Virus record (IMG/VR): IMGVR_UViG_3300028195_000003
Source: an uncultured virus (IMG/VR IMGVR_UViG_3300028195_000003)
Taxonomy: Duplodnaviria; Heunggongvirae; Uroviricota; Caudoviricetes
Strand: one strand, 5' to 3'
Length of the DNA stretch: 64,000 nt
Part shown: one piece after another, positions 8,208 through 55,616 of the stretch
Layout of the letters: every line of letters starts with the position of its first letter
Position numbering within the stretch: the first letter of the stretch is position 1
Made by a program: the position numbers and the translations under genes
The notes under the pieces: generated by a model
What the model was told of the DNA's origin: nothing
The model's input: only the letters and a program-made list of their open reading frames with translations
Databases searched by the model: none

Positions 8208-8278
8208 TGGCAGGGGTAGAGAGAATCGAACTCTCCCCGTAGGGTTTGGAGCCCCACAGTGCGCCCTGGACTACCCCT
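8208..8278 (-). tRNA. trnW: tRNA-Trp(CCA), atypically short D-arm
   Basis: Acceptor AGGGGTA/TACCCCT-G-CCA, anticodon loop CTCCAAA, T-arm GAGAG-TTCGATT-CTCTC; only 71 nt. Confidence 0.75.
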
Positions 8279-8840
8279 TTCGGTTTTCCTTTTTGGACCA
8301 ATGGCCTTGCGGAGGTCGCGACACCCCTATCGTTCTGCACCTCTTCAAGACCGCAACATCTGACACCCCGAACATCTCCGCGATCTTGGTCAACGGCTTC
8401 AGCCACACAAGATCCTGTAGCTCTTCATAAGAAACGTCAAACCTTCTCGATGACACGTTTCCGCACACGGTAGAACAAAACCGACCAACCCCTCCAGTAG
8501 GCACAAAGACGCCCCCGCAGCGCTCACACTTCTTCGCCAGCCTCATATTCCCGCTCTTGGCTTTGTGAAGTTTCGCGTGATCGGATCTGTTCGTTACCAC
8601 AAGATTCAATGGATCGTTATCCAGTCGATCATCGTTCTCATGATGAACAACCTCGTGCCGAACCACCCACCGGCCAATGCCAACAGATGCCACATGCCTG
8701 TGATACAAAACGCGACCAGCAGCCCCCGTTCCAAGAGGATGATCGGCATCGCAAAAGTACAAATATCCAGTCTTCTTATCGACAACAAGTCCCGACACAT
8801 CAACGTATGGATACTGGCTCGGGACATCGTATAGAATCAT
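8271..8840 (-). CDS. HNH homing endonuclease-like protein inside the tRNA array
   Basis: YHRHV...VVHHENDDRLDNDPLNL...SDHAKLH HNH motif, CxxC/FCSxxC zinc finger and C-terminal HTH. More AT-rich than its flanks. GGAGG RBS before ATG 8840. Confidence 0.9.
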   Translation of the reverse strand: MILYDVPSQYPYVDVSGLVVDKKTGYLYFCDADHPLGTGAAGRVLYHRHVASVGIGRWVVRHEVVHHENDDRLDNDPLNLVVTNRSDHAKLHKAKSGNMRLAKKCERCGGVFVPTGGVGRFCSTVCGNVSSRRFDVSYEELQDLVWLKPLTKIAEMFGVSDVAVLKRCRTIGVSRPPQGHWSKKENRKG

Positions 8841-8861
8841 TCTAACCTCCACGGTTAGAAT
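8839..8861 (-). promoter_or_regulatory. RBS-sequestering hairpin of the HNH gene
   Basis: Perfect 9-bp stem ATTCTAACC/GGTTAGAAT with 5-nt loop, spanning GGAGG and the first two bases of ATG. Confidence 0.7.
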
Positions 8862-8871
8862 AACACAAAAA

Positions 8872-8958
8872 TGGTGCACCCGGCCGGACTCGAACCGGCA
8901 CGACCAGGGGGGTCACTGGCATCTCAGGCCAGCGTGTCTGCCATTCCACCACGGGTGC
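8872..8958 (-). tRNA. trnL: tRNA-Leu(GAG)
   Basis: Cloverleaf, anticodon arm CTGGC-CTGAGAT-GCCAG, long variable arm, encoded CCA. Confidence 0.95.
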
Positions 8959-8968
8959 GAAGAAAAAA

Positions 8969-9057
8969 TGGTGATCGAGGCGGGATTCGAACCCGCAAGA
9001 GGGACATGCCCTACCGGGTCCTGAACCCGGCGCGTCCAACCGTTGCGCCACCCGATC
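8969..9057 (-). tRNA. trnL: tRNA-Leu(CAG)
   Basis: CCGGG-TTCAGGA-CCCGG anticodon arm, long variable arm, A73-CCA. Confidence 0.95.
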
Positions 9058-9073
9058 ACGAAAAATAGAAAAA

Positions 9074-9150
9074 TGGAATCGGTGGTCGGATTCGAACCGA
9101 CGAACATCCGATTTGCAGTCGGAGCCCTTGGACCTCTCGGGCACACCGAT
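9074..9150 (-). tRNA. trnC: tRNA-Cys(GCA)
   Basis: TCCGA-CTGCAAA-TCGGA anticodon arm, U73-CCA. Confidence 0.95.
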
Positions 9151-9157
9151 AAGGAAA

Positions 9158-9244
9158 TGGAGGAGGCGGAGGGATTCGAACCCTCGGAGGGGACACCTCT
9201 ACCGCTTTCAAAGCGGGCGCCTTCGACCGCTCGGCCACGCCTCC
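9158..9244 (-). tRNA. trnS: tRNA-Ser(TGA)
   Basis: Loop TTTGAAA, long variable arm, acceptor GGAGGCG/CGCCTCC, CCA. Confidence 0.93.
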
Positions 9245-9250
9245 ATTGTG

Positions 9251-9343
9251 GCCTGCGGCCACCGCTCACCGCCTACCGCTCACCGCCTACCGCACAAAAG
9301 CGGTGAGCGGACAGCAGATAGCGGATAGCGACGAGCCGCAGGC
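9251..9343 (-). repeat. Heptamer-repeat long hairpin, copy 1
   Basis: GCCTGCGGC/GCCGCAGGC closing stem around five YCGC/CYGC-type units facing five GCGG units at 7-nt period. Confidence 0.85.
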
Positions 9344-9351
9344 TCGTGAAC

Positions 9352-9439
9352 TGGCGGAGACGGGGGGATTCGAACCCCCGGAGGGATGAACCTCTCTCGC
9401 TTTCGAAGCGAGTGCCTTGGGCCGCTCGGCCACGTCTCC
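9352..9439 (-). tRNA. trnS: tRNA-Ser(CGA)
   Basis: CTCGC-TTCGAAA-GCGAG anticodon arm, long variable arm, G73-CCA. Confidence 0.95.
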
Positions 9440-9449
9440 TGAAGAGGAC

Positions 9450-9613
9450 TCACGAACAAGAGAGAGCGGGGGAGTACGAGGTTGTCTCGAAAAAGAGACC
9501 GATTTCAAGTCGGTTGCGTCTGCCATTCCGCCATTCCCCCATAGTGGTGGGGGAAGTAGGACTCGAACCTACAGTTTTTCTGAACTCGCACGAAGTTTCT
9601 CTCTCGTCCGTGA
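9450..9613 (-). ncRNA. Circularly permuted tRNA-like gene (anticodon TGA, Leu-like body) enclosed by a long helix
   Basis: In transcript order, the T-arm, acceptor 3' strand and ACCA (9572-9545) come first, then a 4-nt linker CTAT, then the acceptor 5' strand, D-arm and anticodon arm (9540-9498). Flanks 9613-9599 and 9464-9450 form a 15-bp helix. Confidence 0.8.
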
Positions 9614-9616
9614 AGA

Positions 9617-9692
9617 TGGTGGGTAGGGCGGGAGTTGAACCCGCGGTGATGCGATTTTCAGTCGCATGCCTTACCAGCTTGGCTACCTACCC
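9617..9692 (-). tRNA. trnF: tRNA-Phe(GAA)
   Basis: TGCGA-CTGAAAA-TCGCA anticodon arm, 76 nt, CCA. Confidence 0.95.
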
Positions 9693-9699
9693 GGATAAA

Positions 9700-9789
9700 T
9701 GGAGGAGGCGGAGGGATTCGAACCCTCGAGGGCTGTCAGACCCTGCTCGCTTAGCAGGCGAGCGCCTTCGACCGCTCGGCCACGCCTCC
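9700..9789 (-). tRNA. trnS: tRNA-Ser(GCT)
   Basis: CTCGC-CTGCTAA-GCGAG anticodon arm, long variable arm, CCA. Confidence 0.95.
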
Positions 9790-9795
9790 GTTGTG

Positions 9796-9888
9796 GCCTC
9801 CGGCCACCGCTCACCGCCTACCGCTCACCGCCTACCGCACAAGAGCGGTGAGCGGACAGCGGATAGCGGATAGCGACGAGCCGCAGGC
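9796..9888 (-). repeat. Heptamer-repeat long hairpin, copy 2
   Basis: Near-identical to 9251-9343 (offset 545 nt). Confidence 0.85.
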
Positions 9889-9896
9889 TCGTGAAC

Positions 9897-9984
9897 TGGC
9901 GGAGACGGGGGGATTCGAACCCCCGAGGGTGTGACCCCTACTCGCTTTCCAAGCGGGCGCCTTAGGCCTCTCGGCCACGTCTCC
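9897..9984 (-). tRNA. trnS: tRNA-Ser(GGA)
   Basis: Loop TTGGAAA, long variable arm, G73-CCA. Confidence 0.93.
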
Positions 9985-10052
9985 TGAATCGATCACACAG
10001 CGTCGCTCAACGAGCCTCGAGCTCGGAACCGGACACCGCGTATGAAGAATGA

Positions 10053-10145
10053 TGGTGGGTGAGGAGGGAATCGAACCCCCGACGGTCATTACAACTCCGG
10101 GTTTACAGCCCGGTACGGCCTATACCAACAGCACGACACTCACCC
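10053..10145 (-). tRNA. trnY: tRNA-Tyr(GTA), enlarged D-region
   Basis: CCGGG-CTGTAAA-CCCGG anticodon arm, acceptor GGGTGAG/CTCACCC-A-CCA; 93 nt. Confidence 0.88.
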
Positions 10146-10147
10146 AA

Positions 10148-10235
10148 TGGTGCGCGAGGTGGGCTTCGAACCCACAAATGCCATGGAGGCTCCGGTTTTT
10201 GAGGCCGACGCGTCTTCCAGTTCCGCCACTCGCGC
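10148..10235 (-). tRNA. trnL: tRNA-Leu(CAA)
   Basis: Loop CTCAAAA, Leu-type D-arm, long variable arm, A73-CCA. Confidence 0.93.
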
Positions 10236-10300
10236 ACAGAGACAGAACGGATCGATCCTGACGATCGATCCCAGCAATCCATCTTCTGCACGATATTGCG

Positions 10301-10311
10301 ATGTCAAAGAA
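10301..10311 (-). promoter_or_regulatory. boxA-like antitermination site
   Basis: TTCTTTGACAT resembles rrn boxA (TGCTCTTTAACA). It lies between the attenuator and the first tRNA. Confidence 0.55.
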
Positions 10312-10326
10312 TGAAGATCCCACACA

Positions 10327-10364
10327 GTAAAGCCCCCTCGCGGCGGGTGCCGGAGGGGGCTTAC
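10327..10364 (-). terminator. Attenuator terminator hairpin (3:4)
   Basis: AAGCCCCCTC-CGGC-ACCC-GCCG-C-GAGGGGGCTT followed by TACTGTGT (imperfect U-tract). Confidence 0.75.
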
Positions 10365-10392
10365 TTTCGTCTGGGCGGGTGAGATACCGTTC

Positions 10393-10485
10393 CTACGAAG
10401 CCACCTCCGACTGCACGTAGAGCAGCCAGCTGCTGAACGAGCAGCTGAACAAGCTGGTGCGGGAGGTGGTCTGAACGTGGGTCAT
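10393..10485 (-). CDS. Leader peptide of tRNA operon, MTHVQTTSRTSLFSCSFSSWLLYVQSEVAS (30 aa)
   Basis: Hand-translated, ATG 10485 to TAG 10393. Codons 11-23 all match anticodons of the downstream array. It lies between promoter and terminator. Confidence 0.85.
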   Translation of the reverse strand: MTHVQTTSRTSLFSCSFSSWLLYVQSEVAS

Positions 10486-10524
10486 GATCTTCTCTGCCCG
10501 CTGAAACGCCGGGCTCACGTGACA

Positions 10525-10553
10525 AGGCTATCCGTGGCCCACGGGGGTGTCAA
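10525..10553 (-). promoter_or_regulatory. sigma70-type promoter of the tRNA operon
   Basis: TTGACA-17 nt-TAGCCT about 40 nt upstream of the leader ATG. Confidence 0.8.
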
Positions 10554-10596
10554 GCGAAGACCGAAACTTTTTCCACCAGGAGTAGAGAGATGGTCC

Positions 10597-11907
10597 CTAC
10601 CCCCTCCTCCTGGTGTCCCAGACCCAGGCCTTGTCTCTGGTCCGGGTGATGCCGGTGTAGACCATGCGCCGGATGGTCTCGGCGTTCTGGGCCCCCTGCT
10701 TGGCTCTCCACTCCATGGTGTCATCCAGCACGAGCGCGACGAGGGGCCACTGGGAGCCCTGGGATCGGTGGTAGGTAATGGCGTAGCCATAGTCGACGTG
10801 CAGGTAGTGCTTGTAGGTCAGAGCCCGCAGCTGCTTCGAGAAGGGGTAGAAGTGGTCTCCGTACTTGGTCCCGATCAGGCCGGGCTGAATCCAAGCCTTG
10901 CCGTGGTCGAGGCCAGCGCCTGACAACCGCAGCCTCAGGGAGGCCATCTGCTCCGGACCGACGTCTCCGTACCACTGCTCGGCATGCTTCCTGGCGACGC
11001 TCCCTGGAGGGTAGCGACCGTTCCACATCTCCCCGAAGGTCCCCTCGATACCGAGCACCGTGAGCGCCTCCCCGTTCATCCAGCCCAAATCCTTGTTGTT
11101 GTGTCGACACAGCAGCTTCTCACCGACCACGACCGGGCCGAGCTCCCGGTAGCCCATCATCATCCTGATGAGCCGGTTCAGCCCGGCCACGGACTTATTG
11201 GTGAAACAGATAACGGCCACATCGATGCCCGCCTCCATCTGCTCCACGGCCCAGGCTGCCACGTCCGACAAGCTCCCACGCCGGCGAACATAGAAGGGCT
11301 CCACACTCTGCTCTGGCAGCTTTCCACCCTGGCGAACCGCAGCGGAGATGCGCAGGATGGGATTGCCCTTGGACTGCCGATGAATCTCGGTCAGGACCGC
11401 GTCGGGGTTGTCGAAGTCCGGACCCCAACCCTTGCCGCTCACCGGAGGAAGCTGCTCCCGGTCCCCGACATAGATCAGGTTCGACCCAGGCGGCAGGTTG
11501 TCCTCGATGGCGCGATCCAACACCGTGTCGACCATGCTGGACTCGTCGCAGATCAGGACCTCGCCACCCATACAGATCTGCACGGGGTTGTAGAACACCA
11601 CCCCACCATCGTCCTTCTGGCTCACCCCCCGGTACAGTCGGGAGTGGACCGTGGCCACCGGGCGCGGACTGCGGCCCTCCCGTAGCGACATGATCTCACG
11701 AAGCCGGTTGGCAGCCTTCCCTGTCGGTGCCATGTAGGCCACCGGGCGGCTGGCTTCCATCAGCCTGTCCTCGAGCATGTCCACGATGGTGGACTTGCCA
11801 CTGCCGGCTGGGCCGGTCAGCACCAGCTTGCGCTTCCCCTGCATCACGCCCCTGAACAGCGTGTCCAGAGCGATCTCCTGGTCGGGGCTCAATGTGATGA
11901 CGCTCAT
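10597..11907 (-). CDS. Dda/RecD-like SF1B DNA helicase
   Basis: Walker A GPAGSGKS, APTGKAA, DESSMV, GDREQLPPV, LTEIHRQ, YAITYHRSQGSQW, YTGITR. Confidence 0.93.
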   Translation of the reverse strand: MSVITLSPDQEIALDTLFRGVMQGKRKLVLTGPAGSGKSTIVDMLEDRLMEASRPVAYMAPTGKAANRLREIMSLREGRSPRPVATVHSRLYRGVSQKDDGGVVFYNPVQICMGGEVLICDESSMVDTVLDRAIEDNLPPGSNLIYVGDREQLPPVSGKGWGPDFDNPDAVLTEIHRQSKGNPILRISAAVRQGGKLPEQSVEPFYVRRRGSLSDVAAWAVEQMEAGIDVAVICFTNKSVAGLNRLIRMMMGYRELGPVVVGEKLLCRHNNKDLGWMNGEALTVLGIEGTFGEMWNGRYPPGSVARKHAEQWYGDVGPEQMASLRLRLSGAGLDHGKAWIQPGLIGTKYGDHFYPFSKQLRALTYKHYLHVDYGYAITYHRSQGSQWPLVALVLDDTMEWRAKQGAQNAETIRRMVYTGITRTRDKAWVWDTRRRG

Positions 11908-49493: not shown

Positions 49494-49514
49494 CCCAATG
49501 ATGGCATGAAGAGG

Positions 49515-49552
49515 GAAACCCTCCCCGGCTCCGACAAGCTGGGGAGGGTTTC
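49515..49552. terminator. Intrinsic terminator-like hairpin between convergent genes
   Basis: GAAACCCTCCCCGGCT / AGCTGGGGAGGGTTTC 16-bp stem. Confidence 0.75.
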
Positions 49553-49646
49553 TGGAGAGGAACGATGAGCGAGCGACGAACTGCCTCGTTCAACCATGAG
49601 GGTACACGGTCACGACACCTCGTGTCAACATAGCGACCACGAAGGG

Positions 49647-50183: not shown

Positions 50184-52565
50184 CTACGATTCCGTCTTCT
50201 TCTTGGAGAAGCTCACGGTGTAGTGCTCCATCATCTCGGCCAGCGTGAGACCGCCAGGGCTACGCGCCGGGGCGTCTTCCAAGGCCTGCAGACTGGCCTT
50301 GGCGTCTGCCAGCTCTCCCTTCAGAGAATGGACCTGCTGGAGCAGGGCGACCATCTCCTGTTCCACTCCGCGAACGGACTCGTCCGCCCGTCCCATGAAC
50401 GAGCTCACCGTATCCGACAGATCGTCGACCCGGGAAGCCTGCTCCTCGGCCATACGGCCTACGGTCTGGATGCGGGGCATGAGCTCGTCCGCCACCTGCT
50501 TGGACACCGCGGAGGCATCGAGAGACACAGGAGCGTCTACCGGCTGACCGATCACCTGACGCACCAGGTTCTCGACCGCATCCATACGGGCGTCGAGGCG
50601 AGAGGTGGCCGCTGACACGGCACGCTCGACCACCGAGCGCAGCATGCCCTCGTCAACGAGCGGGGAGAAGGGAAGATCCATGACGGGCTGCGCGACGGGC
50701 TGCGCGACGGGCTGCGCGACGGGCTGCGCGACGGGCTGCGCAACGGGCTGTGAGACGGGCGGCGCCACGGGGAGCTCGGCCTGCCCCGCCTTCTGCGAGG
50801 CCTCACGGCGCTCCTCTTCACGGCTCACGGCCACCAGGCCCCTGGCCTCGATCTCCACAGCATAGGGCTCGTAGATCGCGTGGAAGGTGGTGACGTTGCT
50901 GCGCTTGCCATGAACGTCGTAGTACCCCTGAATCATGCTCCGGATGGAGAAGCGGAACCCATCGGGCAACAGCCTGATCATCGCCAGGTAGTAGTCCCGA
51001 GGCTTGCCCTTGAAGATCGACAAGGCCTTCTTCACGTGACGAGAGGGCGACTTGTCTTCCGAACCGGGCTCCGTGGTGGCCATGATCCAGTTACGGACCT
51101 TCTTGGTGTCGGACGGGTCGATCCTCTGATCGGGCCACGATCCCGAAGCGCGACATCCACTGACCAGCTCAGCACCGGCGATGACGACCCGCTGGTTGCC
51201 TTCCGAGAAGCTCGACAGAGGACGGCCCATGAAGGTCTCGATAGTCAGCTCGGCGCTGGCCTCGTTCATCCGGCGCTCTTCCGCTGCAGCATCCGTGAGG
51301 ATGGAGAAGTGCTCCTCCAGACCACCCTCACCGGACAACCCGGGGAAACCGACAGGGAGGTCATCGACACGAAGCGGGACGAAGAAGGCACCCGGCATGG
51401 AGGGTCGCTCGTCCTTTCCACGAACCCGCTCGGAGAACAGCGAGATGGTCTCACGCTGCTTGTAGTAGTTGATCTTCCGACCCGTCAGCATCTGGCAGGC
51501 ACGATGCACGGTGTTCACCGAGCACTTCGCCCCCTCGGGGAGCACCAGCATGCAGGCTACGAAGAAGGCTTGGGCGTTCGCGTTGATCAGACCCCTCACA
51601 TCCATGACAAGGTCTTCGCTGAGCCATTCCTCGATATCGATCTTCCTTCCACCACGGGTGCTGGTTCCGTCGATCCGGCAAACAGCCGAGGCCAGCTCAC
51701 GTAGATCTCCCAGCTTGTGTTCGGAGACCCAGGCCGAGGCGACCTCGAAGATCGTCGACCGCGTCGCGAGACCGGACCAGGAGCGCTCGAACTCGGTCTT
51801 GGTGGCGTCCTTGGCCGCCGTGAGCATCTCCCGAACACGGTCCACAACCTGCTCACGGGATGGAAGTTCGTCGTGTGCCAGGACCTCGACGAGCTGATCC
51901 GTCAACACCTCGACGGTCACCGTCTCGAGATCCGAGTCAGTGATGCACAGCTCGATCCATCCGTCGAGTTGTTGGCCCTCTACCAGCTGTTTGGGCTGAT
52001 AACGACCCATGGCCTCGCTGACGAGGTCCATCGACGAGCTGAAGACATCGCCCCAAGACTGGGCCGTTACCTCGCTGGGATCAACGTCGATTTCACCGTT
52101 TCTACGCAGCCAGTCGCGGACCTGCTTGAAGTCGAGCATCTGGCCCGTCTCCTCTCCCCCTTTGATCATGGCCACGAGGATGGCGGTCTTGACCTCATCG
52201 GGCTCATCCTGGATCTCGCTGGCGTGAGGAACGCCATTACGTAGAAATCCAGCACTCTCGAGGATCGGTCGAGCCTTGGAGAGCTTGTGGTGGACACGGA
52301 CGAACGGAACACGTTCACTCTTGGCCAGCTTCACTGCCACATTGTCGATCAGATGGTTCGTCAGACTCGACAAGACGACCACGCCTTCGCACTCGGAGGG
52401 AAGGCGATCCGCCGTCATCTTCTTCCACGACCAGTGCTCCACGATCTCCATGCCCATCTCCCGGTAGGGCTGGCGAAACTGACGGTCGACACGTCCAGGC
52501 TCTCCTCCCACGAGGAGAATCTTGAAGGCCTGCTTGCTGTCTTTCTTGTGAGGAACGGCTACCAT
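50184..52565 (-). CDS. Large protein with N-terminal DUF2325-like domain, PVAQ repeats and C-terminal coiled coil
   Basis: ILLVGG...ECEGVVVLSSLTNH...LAKSERVPFVRV; AAGGAG RBS before MVAVPH (52565). Confidence 0.75.
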   Translation of the reverse strand: MVAVPHKKDSKQAFKILLVGGEPGRVDRQFRQPYREMGMEIVEHWSWKKMTADRLPSECEGVVVLSSLTNHLIDNVAVKLAKSERVPFVRVHHKLSKARPILESAGFLRNGVPHASEIQDEPDEVKTAILVAMIKGGEETGQMLDFKQVRDWLRRNGEIDVDPSEVTAQSWGDVFSSSMDLVSEAMGRYQPKQLVEGQQLDGWIELCITDSDLETVTVEVLTDQLVEVLAHDELPSREQVVDRVREMLTAAKDATKTEFERSWSGLATRSTIFEVASAWVSEHKLGDLRELASAVCRIDGTSTRGGRKIDIEEWLSEDLVMDVRGLINANAQAFFVACMLVLPEGAKCSVNTVHRACQMLTGRKINYYKQRETISLFSERVRGKDERPSMPGAFFVPLRVDDLPVGFPGLSGEGGLEEHFSILTDAAAEERRMNEASAELTIETFMGRPLSSFSEGNQRVVIAGAELVSGCRASGSWPDQRIDPSDTKKVRNWIMATTEPGSEDKSPSRHVKKALSIFKGKPRDYYLAMIRLLPDGFRFSIRSMIQGYYDVHGKRSNVTTFHAIYEPYAVEIEARGLVAVSREEERREASQKAGQAELPVAPPVSQPVAQPVAQPVAQPVAQPVAQPVMDLPFSPLVDEGMLRSVVERAVSAATSRLDARMDAVENLVRQVIGQPVDAPVSLDASAVSKQVADELMPRIQTVGRMAEEQASRVDDLSDTVSSFMGRADESVRGVEQEMVALLQQVHSLKGELADAKASLQALEDAPARSPGGLTLAEMMEHYTVSFSKKKTES
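50682..50760. repeat. 12-bp coding tandem repeat (GACGGGCTGCGC) x5 plus degenerate copies, encodes PVAQ
   Basis: Read directly from the sequence. Confidence 0.95.
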
Positions 52566-52590
52566 GTCGTCTCCTTGGGTTGTACTCGAG

Positions 52591-52619
52591 AACATAACGC
52601 CTGCCACCACCAGTGGCAA
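52591..52619 (-). promoter_or_regulatory. sigma70-like promoter with YAC-N5-GTR operator
   Basis: TTGCCA-17-TATGTT containing TGCCAC-N5-GTGGCA. Confidence 0.7.
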
Positions 52620-52640
52620 GCACTATCACACAAACGGCGA

Positions 52641-52670
52641 GCCCCCCTCCCGCTTTGGCGGGAGGGGGGC
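52641..52670 (-). terminator. GC-rich hairpin, probable terminator
   Basis: GCCCCCCTCCCGC / GCGGGAGGGGGGC 13-bp stem downstream of 52702..53631. Confidence 0.7.
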
Positions 52671-52701
52671 GTTGTTCGAACGGACGAAGAGTGATCACTG
52701 C

Positions 52702-55518: not shown

Positions 55519-55616
55519 GACTTCCTCACCGTGCATTGGCAGACTATCATCGTCAGAGTTGACGTCAAGCCCAAAAGTGATAAGACGTATAACGAGCCAG
55601 ACGAGAGGCGATAATC

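Follow-up and report, generated by a model that had tools for sequence, protein, structure and literature searches.

Leader-peptide attenuation is a known mode of control of genes for the synthesis or charging of amino acids and is found in enterobacteria in the trp, his, leu and pheA leaders as well as in multivalent attenuators including the ilvGMEDA leader, which carries Ile, Leu and Val codons, and the thr leader, which carries Thr and Ile codons. These attenuators combine a short open reading frame (ORF) containing codons for the controlled supply with a terminator that competes with an antiterminator, the 5' strand of which lies at the end of the ORF, where the stop codon lets a finishing ribosome mask it; the multivalent ones sense more than one amino acid. 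The pheM leader of pheST is a leader-peptide attenuator of phenylalanyl-tRNA synthetase, in which attenuation through translation of a leader peptide acts on a component of the decoding machinery that serves the same amino acid. T-box riboswitches (RF00230) also gauge the supply of transfer RNA (tRNA) in a leader RNA and operate a terminator/antiterminator switch, but they bind the uncharged tRNA directly and have no ORF. The pheL leader is treated in PMC3082878. The locus described here lies in a 64-kb stretch of DNA (hereafter the window) from an uncultured virus of the Caudoviricetes (IMG/VR record IMGVR_UViG_3300028195_000003), in which a 30-codon ORF precedes an array of 11 tRNA genes. 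Its sequence and folding models suggest that this leader is probably a ribosome-mediated, trp-type leader-peptide transcription attenuator which gates the phage tRNA array. It would share the features listed above with the enterobacterial attenuators and differ from them in that its output is tRNA genes rather than biosynthetic enzymes, that six amino acids are involved and that it is phage-borne. Whereas pheM-pheST controls a protein gene, for one amino acid and in a cellular genome, the product here is a tRNA set, and in contrast to the T-box the sensor would be the translating ribosome.

On the minus strand the locus runs from a helicase gene through a candidate promoter (P1), a 5' hairpin, the 30-codon ORF, a terminator-like hairpin (T1), a 36-nucleotide (nt) box and a second hairpin (T2) to the 11 tRNA genes (Table 1); the genes behind the leader are not the amino-acid biosynthesis, transport or synthetase genes that are usual for attenuators. 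According to ARAGORN the array consists of Leu-CAA, Tyr-GTA, Ser-GGA, Ser-GCT, Phe-GAA, Ser-CGA, Ser-TGA, Cys-GCA, Leu-CAG, Leu-GAG and Trp-CCA. It serves exactly six amino acids (Leu three times, Ser four times, and Tyr, Phe, Cys and Trp), the same six that have U-first codons in the genetic code, and eight of its 11 tRNAs belong to the class with a long variable arm (Leu, Ser, Tyr). The original prediction held that the codons of the short ORF list the anticodons of the array that follows, and this is borne out by the sequence. The ORF is present at the position given for it, 16 of its 30 codons pair exactly, by Watson-Crick rules, with anticodons of the array, and 10 of the 11 anticodon types are matched, with only TCA absent. 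Codons 11-23 are all cognate and represent all six array amino acids, against a background share of cognate codons of 0.20, and this run of 13 is the longest in the six frames of the window, where the next runs comprise 10 and 7 codons. In a control of 144 unrelated loci with 3.34 million codon positions, runs of at least 13 Phe, Leu, Ser, Tyr, Cys or Trp codons occurred 16 times, and none of these 16 contained all six amino acids; about 0.0014 such runs would thus be expected in the approximately 300 codon positions before the array.

The promoter claimed for this transcript, TTGACA and TAGCCT separated by a 17-nt spacer, is likewise found in the sequence. A consensus promoter scan missed P1 because TAGCCT agrees with TATAAT at only three of six positions, and a similar site, TTGACG-16-TAGTCT, occurs at 55568 on the minus strand. 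Transcription from P1 would be expected to start near G 10518, 7 nt past the -10 hexamer. An in-frame GTG at 10518 would extend the leader ORF to 41 codons in a leaderless configuration. This stretch is treated here as 5' untranslated region (UTR) because all three codon changes that it shows between the two phages compared below are non-synonymous and because it contains a conserved hairpin, a leaderless start being the less likely option.

Evidence for conservation comes from metagenomes. Among phage records (INPHARED) no close relative was found with megablast, blastn returned single tRNAs only and tblastn with the helicase gave matches of at most about 30% identity. Scans of IMG/VR with the helicase protein, two helicase alignments and a leader pattern returned no relative above 35% identity and no match to the pattern, and no relative was found in GTDB genome contigs. 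A metagenome scan with the helicase returned 66 loci. Of the loci that were fetched, 146 in all, at least three tRNAs are present in only L081, L082 and L017, the last of which carries a group of three. L081 is the same phage as that of the window and has an identical leader. L082 is a second lineage, whose helicase shares 70% of its amino acids and 70.6% of its nucleotides with that of the window, and the 5.7-kb contig of L083 (45% identity) lacks tRNA genes. Two further helicase homologues are P0002, 71% identical and from a 385-kb contig, and P0003, 66% identical. Among the fetched loci L082 is the one related lineage that carries an array, and its layout matches that of the window throughout, from promoter, 5' hairpin, 30-codon ORF and T1 to box, T2 and tRNAs. 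Its array repeats that of the window in tRNA content and order and adds Leu-TAG. Codons 9-23 of its leader are all Phe, Leu, Ser, Tyr, Cys or Trp codons, 15 in a row, no longer run of this kind occurs in its 17 kb, and TCA, the codon missing from the leader of the window, occurs in it.

The two leaders diverge in an uneven manner. Identity is 49% in the intergenic DNA before the -35 hexamer, 59% in the promoter spacer, 90% from the -10 hexamer to the ATG, 48% in codons 2-17, 100% in codons 18-30 and the stop codon, synonymous sites included, and 80% in T1, where the changes fall in the loop and outer pairs. Codons 2-17 are thus as diverged as neutral spacer, and the hairpins predicted in this variable stretch are unlike between the two phages. 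Since the class of codon is retained at 48% identity and with unlike hairpins, it is the codon class that is conserved here and not RNA structure or peptide sequence, which is the pattern that regulatory codons of a leader peptide leave. The variable part is built from a 12-nt repeat, TTCAGCNGCTNG. A role for this repeat in DNA binding was considered and rejected because an upstream copy of the repeat is not conserved.

The transcript can adopt alternative pairings of four regions, in which region 2, at the end of the ORF, pairs either with region 1 or with region 3, the 5' arm of T1, and regions 3 and 4 form T1 itself. The leader is far more structured than its shuffles (z = -5.2), and, of all hairpin loci in the window, T1 is one of the three strongest. 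Free energies for the window and L082, respectively, are -28.0 and -28.5 kcal/mol for the 2:3 antiterminator, -30.6 and -27.4 kcal/mol for T1 (3:4) and -35.7 and -32.5 kcal/mol for 1:2. The duplex between region 2 and the 5' arm of T1 (-22.3 and -21.8 kcal/mol) was matched by only 10 of 2000 dinucleotide shuffles of the upstream leader in the window and by 7 of 2000 in L082. In its style, an A-tract, a GC-stem and a T-tract, T1 resembles the hairpin at 49511-49556. This hairpin and that at 52633-52682 are the two strongest of the window, with perfect GC stems of 13 to 17 base pairs (bp) and -33 to -36 kcal/mol; the former sits between convergent genes, where a terminator is expected, and the latter immediately upstream of where the gene at 50184-52619 (-) starts.

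The effect of a ribosome on these pairings was modelled on a transcript that ended immediately ahead of the 3' arm of T1 and in which the ribosome masked 30 nt. In the window the probability of the antiterminator is 0.89-0.98 with the A-site at codons 5-16 or 20-21, and in L082 it is 0.90-0.97 for all of codons 5-21. It falls to 0.00 in the window and 0.04 in L082 at codon 24 and is zero in both from codon 26 to the stop codon, whereas the model without a ribosome gives 0.12 and 0.48, respectively. In the model the pairing is thus open with the A-site at codons 5-22 and blocked from codon 24 to the stop codon, so that a finishing ribosome should let T1 form and one stalled in the codon run should prevent this, which is the logic of the trp operon. 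The suggestion that stalling at any of the matched codons would induce the operon, in the manner of an OR gate, is weaker for the last one or two codons of the run, where the modelled ribosome already covers part of the antiterminator.

It is proposed that a ribosome translates the 30-codon leader of a transcript started at P1 and that fast decoding of the Phe, Leu, Ser, Tyr, Cys and Trp codons would bring it to the stop codon, where region 2 would be covered, T1 would form and most transcripts would end. Where charged tRNA is short for any such codon, the ribosome would stall between codon 9 or 11 and about codon 21, leaving region 2 free to pair with the 5' arm of T1 as antiterminator, so that RNA polymerase could enter the 11 tRNA genes. 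The tRNAs produced would in turn relieve the stall, which would amount to negative feedback. The candidate triggers are loss of host tRNAs, through defence nucleases or shut-off, and amino-acid starvation; to act as a sensor against tRNA-cleaving defence would be a purpose compatible with this arrangement. Sequence and computation show the parts, the codon match and its conservation in L082, as well as the alternative pairings; translation of the ORF, termination at T1, a kinetic choice between the folds and the biological trigger are what the attenuator would require of the living system.

Taken as a whole, the original prediction of a leader-peptide attenuator is supported in part, by the codon match, the conservation in L082, the complementarity between terminator and antiterminator and the position of the stop codon, at which a terminating ribosome would mask region 2, and fails in its expectation that leader codons co-vary with array anticodons. 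The single available case goes the other way, as L082 has the extra Leu-TAG and no CTA in its leader. Several further observations weigh against an attenuator. Pairing of regions 1 and 2 is not above chance, with 184 of 2000 shuffles as good in the window and 1004 of 2000 in L082, and the U-tract of T1 is poor (UUUACUGUGU in the window and UUCCUCGUGU in L082), which is why a terminator scan missed T1; in both respects the locus differs from the enterobacterial attenuators. In the window, the modelled probability of the antiterminator is only 0.33-0.46 with the A-site at codons 17-19 because region 1 re-pairs behind the ribosome, an event that is probably hindered sterically. When the full T1 is folded at equilibrium, its probability is 1.00 for every ribosome position in the window, and in L082 this holds only for an A-site at or beyond codon 8; T1 being always favoured in the window, the switch would have to be kinetic. 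The Shine-Dalgarno sequence before the leader ATG is weak (-3.6 kcal/mol), a level that only 12 of 46 crude gene starts match or fall below. The variable part contains two in-frame length differences of 9 nt between the phages, read by eye in a stretch that MAFFT aligned ungapped, and slippage in the 12-nt repeat rather than selection for frame could explain them. Conservation is based on two lineages only, and since the pairing arms are identical in both there is no support from covariation. The box between T1 and T2 could be a separate promoter, making read-through of T1 unnecessary. Finally, 20 metagenome runs of marine or seawater origin, belonging to 17 studies, contain the same DNA; all are DNA runs, and no RNA run is listed.

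An unlikely alternative is that the region from P1 to T1 is a self-contained transcript of about 190 nt, a phage small RNA or stable structured RNA, in which frame and codons arise incidentally from a repeat that is GC-rich and A-poor and has a CAGC/GCTG core. The strong structure of the leader, the weak Shine-Dalgarno sequence, the formation of T1 at equilibrium and the repetitive nature of the variable stretch would all fit such an RNA, and the conservation of the 5' UTR and the 3' half of the ORF at the nucleotide level, synonymous sites included, points to constraint on RNA. Against it stands the variable stretch, which has no conserved structure and yet holds on to its codons for Phe, Leu, Ser, Tyr, Cys and Trp although only 48% of its nucleotides are identical. 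A small RNA also leaves unexplained why these codons match the six amino acids of the adjacent array and why the stop codon abuts sequence that pairs with an arm of the terminator. The two functions may be combined in one molecule, as abstracts on rnTrpL describe attenuator RNAs that may act both as attenuators and in trans.

Decidedly unlikely, in turn, is an arrangement in which T1 serves as terminator or insulator of the helicase operon, the tRNAs are transcribed from a promoter of their own in the TTGACA box, and the small ORF is incidental. On reading the sequence, no terminator is seen between the helicase stop codon (10597) and P1, the resemblance of T1 to the hairpin between the convergent genes would suit an insulator, and the box at 10311-10276 is 97% conserved and carries a perfect TTGACA. 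This hexamer is not followed by an acceptable -10 sequence at 16-18 nt, and the conservation of the P1 hexamers, the codon run and the complementarity between region 2 and T1 would be left without explanation. The box, which is more conserved than the helicase gene, is a possible second promoter or may form the base of the T2 stem; T2 itself is kept in L082, where its outer pair is changed from G-C to C-G. That the ORF encodes a functional micro-protein of 30 residues (or 41 if leaderless) next to tRNA genes by coincidence is very improbable, since, despite the equal ORF length in both phages, the 13 identical C-terminal residues and a public gene call for exactly this ORF (P0121), the C-terminal identity extends to the nucleotide level with no synonymous change, the N-terminal half swaps residues (L to F, F to S, C to L, S to L) and retains nothing but its composition, unlike a folded or membrane peptide, and a protein search with the 41-residue reading found no homologue besides the 30-residue ORF of the window itself. 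The attenuator thus remains the preferred reading of the leader.

Table 1. Features of the leader, the tRNA array and neighbouring genes (positions refer to the window unless L082 is named; the percentages and hexamer changes compare it with L082)
Feature	Position	Strand	Basis or remark
Dda/RecD-like helicase gene, upstream neighbour	10597..11907	-	phrog_325, E 4.4e-76; served as query for relatives
P1 -35 hexamer (candidate), TTGACA	10548..10553	-	Sequence; TTGACG in L082, 5/6 identical
P1 -10 hexamer (candidate), TAGCCT, 17 nt past -35	10525..10530	-	Sequence; TAGTCT in L082, 5/6 identical
5' hairpin of the leader transcript, GCCCG/CGGGC	10496..10514	-	Folds in both phages; the single change within the hairpin is in the loop
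Leader ORF, 30 codons and TAG, MTHVQTTSRTSLFSCSFSSWLLYVQSEVAS	10393..10485	-	Sequence
Region 1, CCACCUCC, codons 6-8, possible anti-antiterminator partner of region 2	10462..10469	-	Pairs with GGAGGUGG in minimum-energy folds
Putative regulatory run, codons 11-23	10417..10455	-	13 consecutive exact partners of array anticodons
Region 2, GUCGGAGGUGGCUUCGU, codons 25-30 up to the stop codon, putative antiterminator 5' strand	10395..10411	-	100% identical in L082
T1, terminator-like hairpin (regions 3 and 4), followed by GUGUGGGAUCUU	10326..10365	-	-30.6 kcal/mol
Conserved box, TTCTTTGACATCGCAATATCGTGCAGAAGATGGATT, 36 nt, between T1 and T2	10276..10311	-	97% identical in L082
T2 hairpin, GGAUCGAUC/GAUCGAUCC, 13 nt before the first tRNA	10249..10271	-	Terminator-like call by scan
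Array of 11 tRNA genes	8208..10235	-	ARAGORN; Rfam tRNA
Circularly permuted tRNA-like gene	9450..9613; L082 10273-10435	-; L082 +	Sequence reading; conserved
HNH homing-endonuclease gene between tRNA-Leu(GAG) and tRNA-Trp	8271..8840	-	PHROG HNH endonuclease, E 2.7e-26
Leader ORF of L082, 30 codons, MNPVIATTCSSFSSLLSSSWLLYVQSEVAS	L082 9403-9495		Homologous to the leader of the window

The array itself shows a number of further features. All eight of its tRNAs that read U-first codons carry A36-A37-A38 in the anticodon loop. The stop codon of the HNH homing-endonuclease gene extends into the first bases of tRNA-Trp; the gene is missing from this place in L082, whose tRNA-Leu(GAG) and tRNA-Trp are separated by 14 nt. 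A unit of Ser-tRNA, spacer and Ser-tRNA is duplicated in both phages (9790-9896 and 9245-9351 on the minus strand of the window, 9996-10089 and 10533-10635 in L082). The spacers in the window, of about 105 nt, contain 7-nt repeats (CCGCTAT... / GCGGTAG...) whose folding gives a long hairpin (about -27 to -28 kcal/mol), and those of L082 consist of CAGCCAA-type 7-nt repeats instead. L082 also has a GC-rich insert of 157 nt (10905-11061, plus strand) between tRNA-Leu(TAG) and tRNA-Leu(CAG) which is absent from the window.

The array further contains a circularly permuted tRNA-like gene, in which the elements are ordered T-arm, 3' strand of the acceptor, ACCA, 4 nt, 5' strand of the acceptor, D-arm and anticodon arm. 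The anticodon loop reads CUUGAAA with anticodon UGA, the discriminator is A, and the element is closed by a 15-bp helix with one compensatory pair in L082. When the element was re-ordered in silico, ARAGORN called a tRNA (tga) in 200 of 240 junction variants for the window and in 201 of 240 for L082, and the Rfam tRNA model applied to 9540-9467 alone recognises a weak tRNA (29.8 bits against a cut-off of 29). The element is reminiscent of YrlA and other bacterial Y RNAs, which have in common with it a tRNA-like body, an acceptor end closed by a loop and the ends of the RNA in a long helix; it differs from YrlA in retaining the full anticodon arm. Its assignment to the YrlA Y RNA family (RF02553) was rejected, the score being 14.7 bits (E = 1.6) where the cut-off is 69, no member of the TROVE/Ro60 family was found among the 51 proteins of the window, and the permuted junction had no match in an IMG/VR scan. 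On the tentative extension considered below, the permuted gene could belong to the same counter-measure as the array, for example as a decoy.

The window has a G+C content of 62% and a phage-like gene content, with Pfam matches to a DnaE-type polymerase, UDG, RusA, an ArdC-like protein, a methylase and a tail lysozyme. In sequence pieces assignable to this phage from four sequencing runs the leader showed zero letter differences, at a cover of the leader that is thin, and the pieces revealed no transcript ends. A search of positions 10230-10560 against Rfam with E-values up to 10 gave four chance-level hits, none of which is the T-box (RF00230) or a Trp, His, Leu or Thr leader.

Phage tRNA sets have been described to counter tRNA-cleaving defences (PMC10264068, eLife 2023; PMC11555353, Nat Commun 2024), and what the abstracts of these papers report has in common with the present array that spare tRNAs are provided for a restricted set of anticodons. 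The same abstracts concern which tRNAs are carried and how cleavage is escaped, and describe no leader that senses demand. Passages of PMC13056530 and PMC13462974 on bacterial Schlafen nucleases state no preference for class II tRNAs. The array described here, with its restriction to six amino acids and eight of 11 tRNAs with a long variable arm, hints at a specific host attack that the phage lineage has answered. A preference for class II tRNAs is known for human Schlafen enzymes.

Full-text literature searches found no account of leader-peptide attenuation of tRNA genes. The novelty would be that of textbook leader-peptide attenuation with tRNA genes as its output, in a phage. It is a tentative and somewhat doubtful extension that phage tRNA arrays are generally demand-gated by codon-matched leaders, the present one being a six-input sensor tuned to the class II types Leu, Ser and Tyr plus Phe, Cys and Trp, which would detect loss of host tRNAs (through a defence nuclease, shut-off or hypomodification) within seconds, answer it with its own set and shut itself off by feedback. 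If the attenuator is real, its compact multi-input sensor would be of use to synthetic biology, and for work on tRNA-cleaving defence it would provide a direct molecular read-out of host tRNA depletion in infection. It would account for the timing and dosage of spare tRNAs in phages, and it would mean that in a virus the logic of the attenuator governs the supply of the adaptor molecules themselves.

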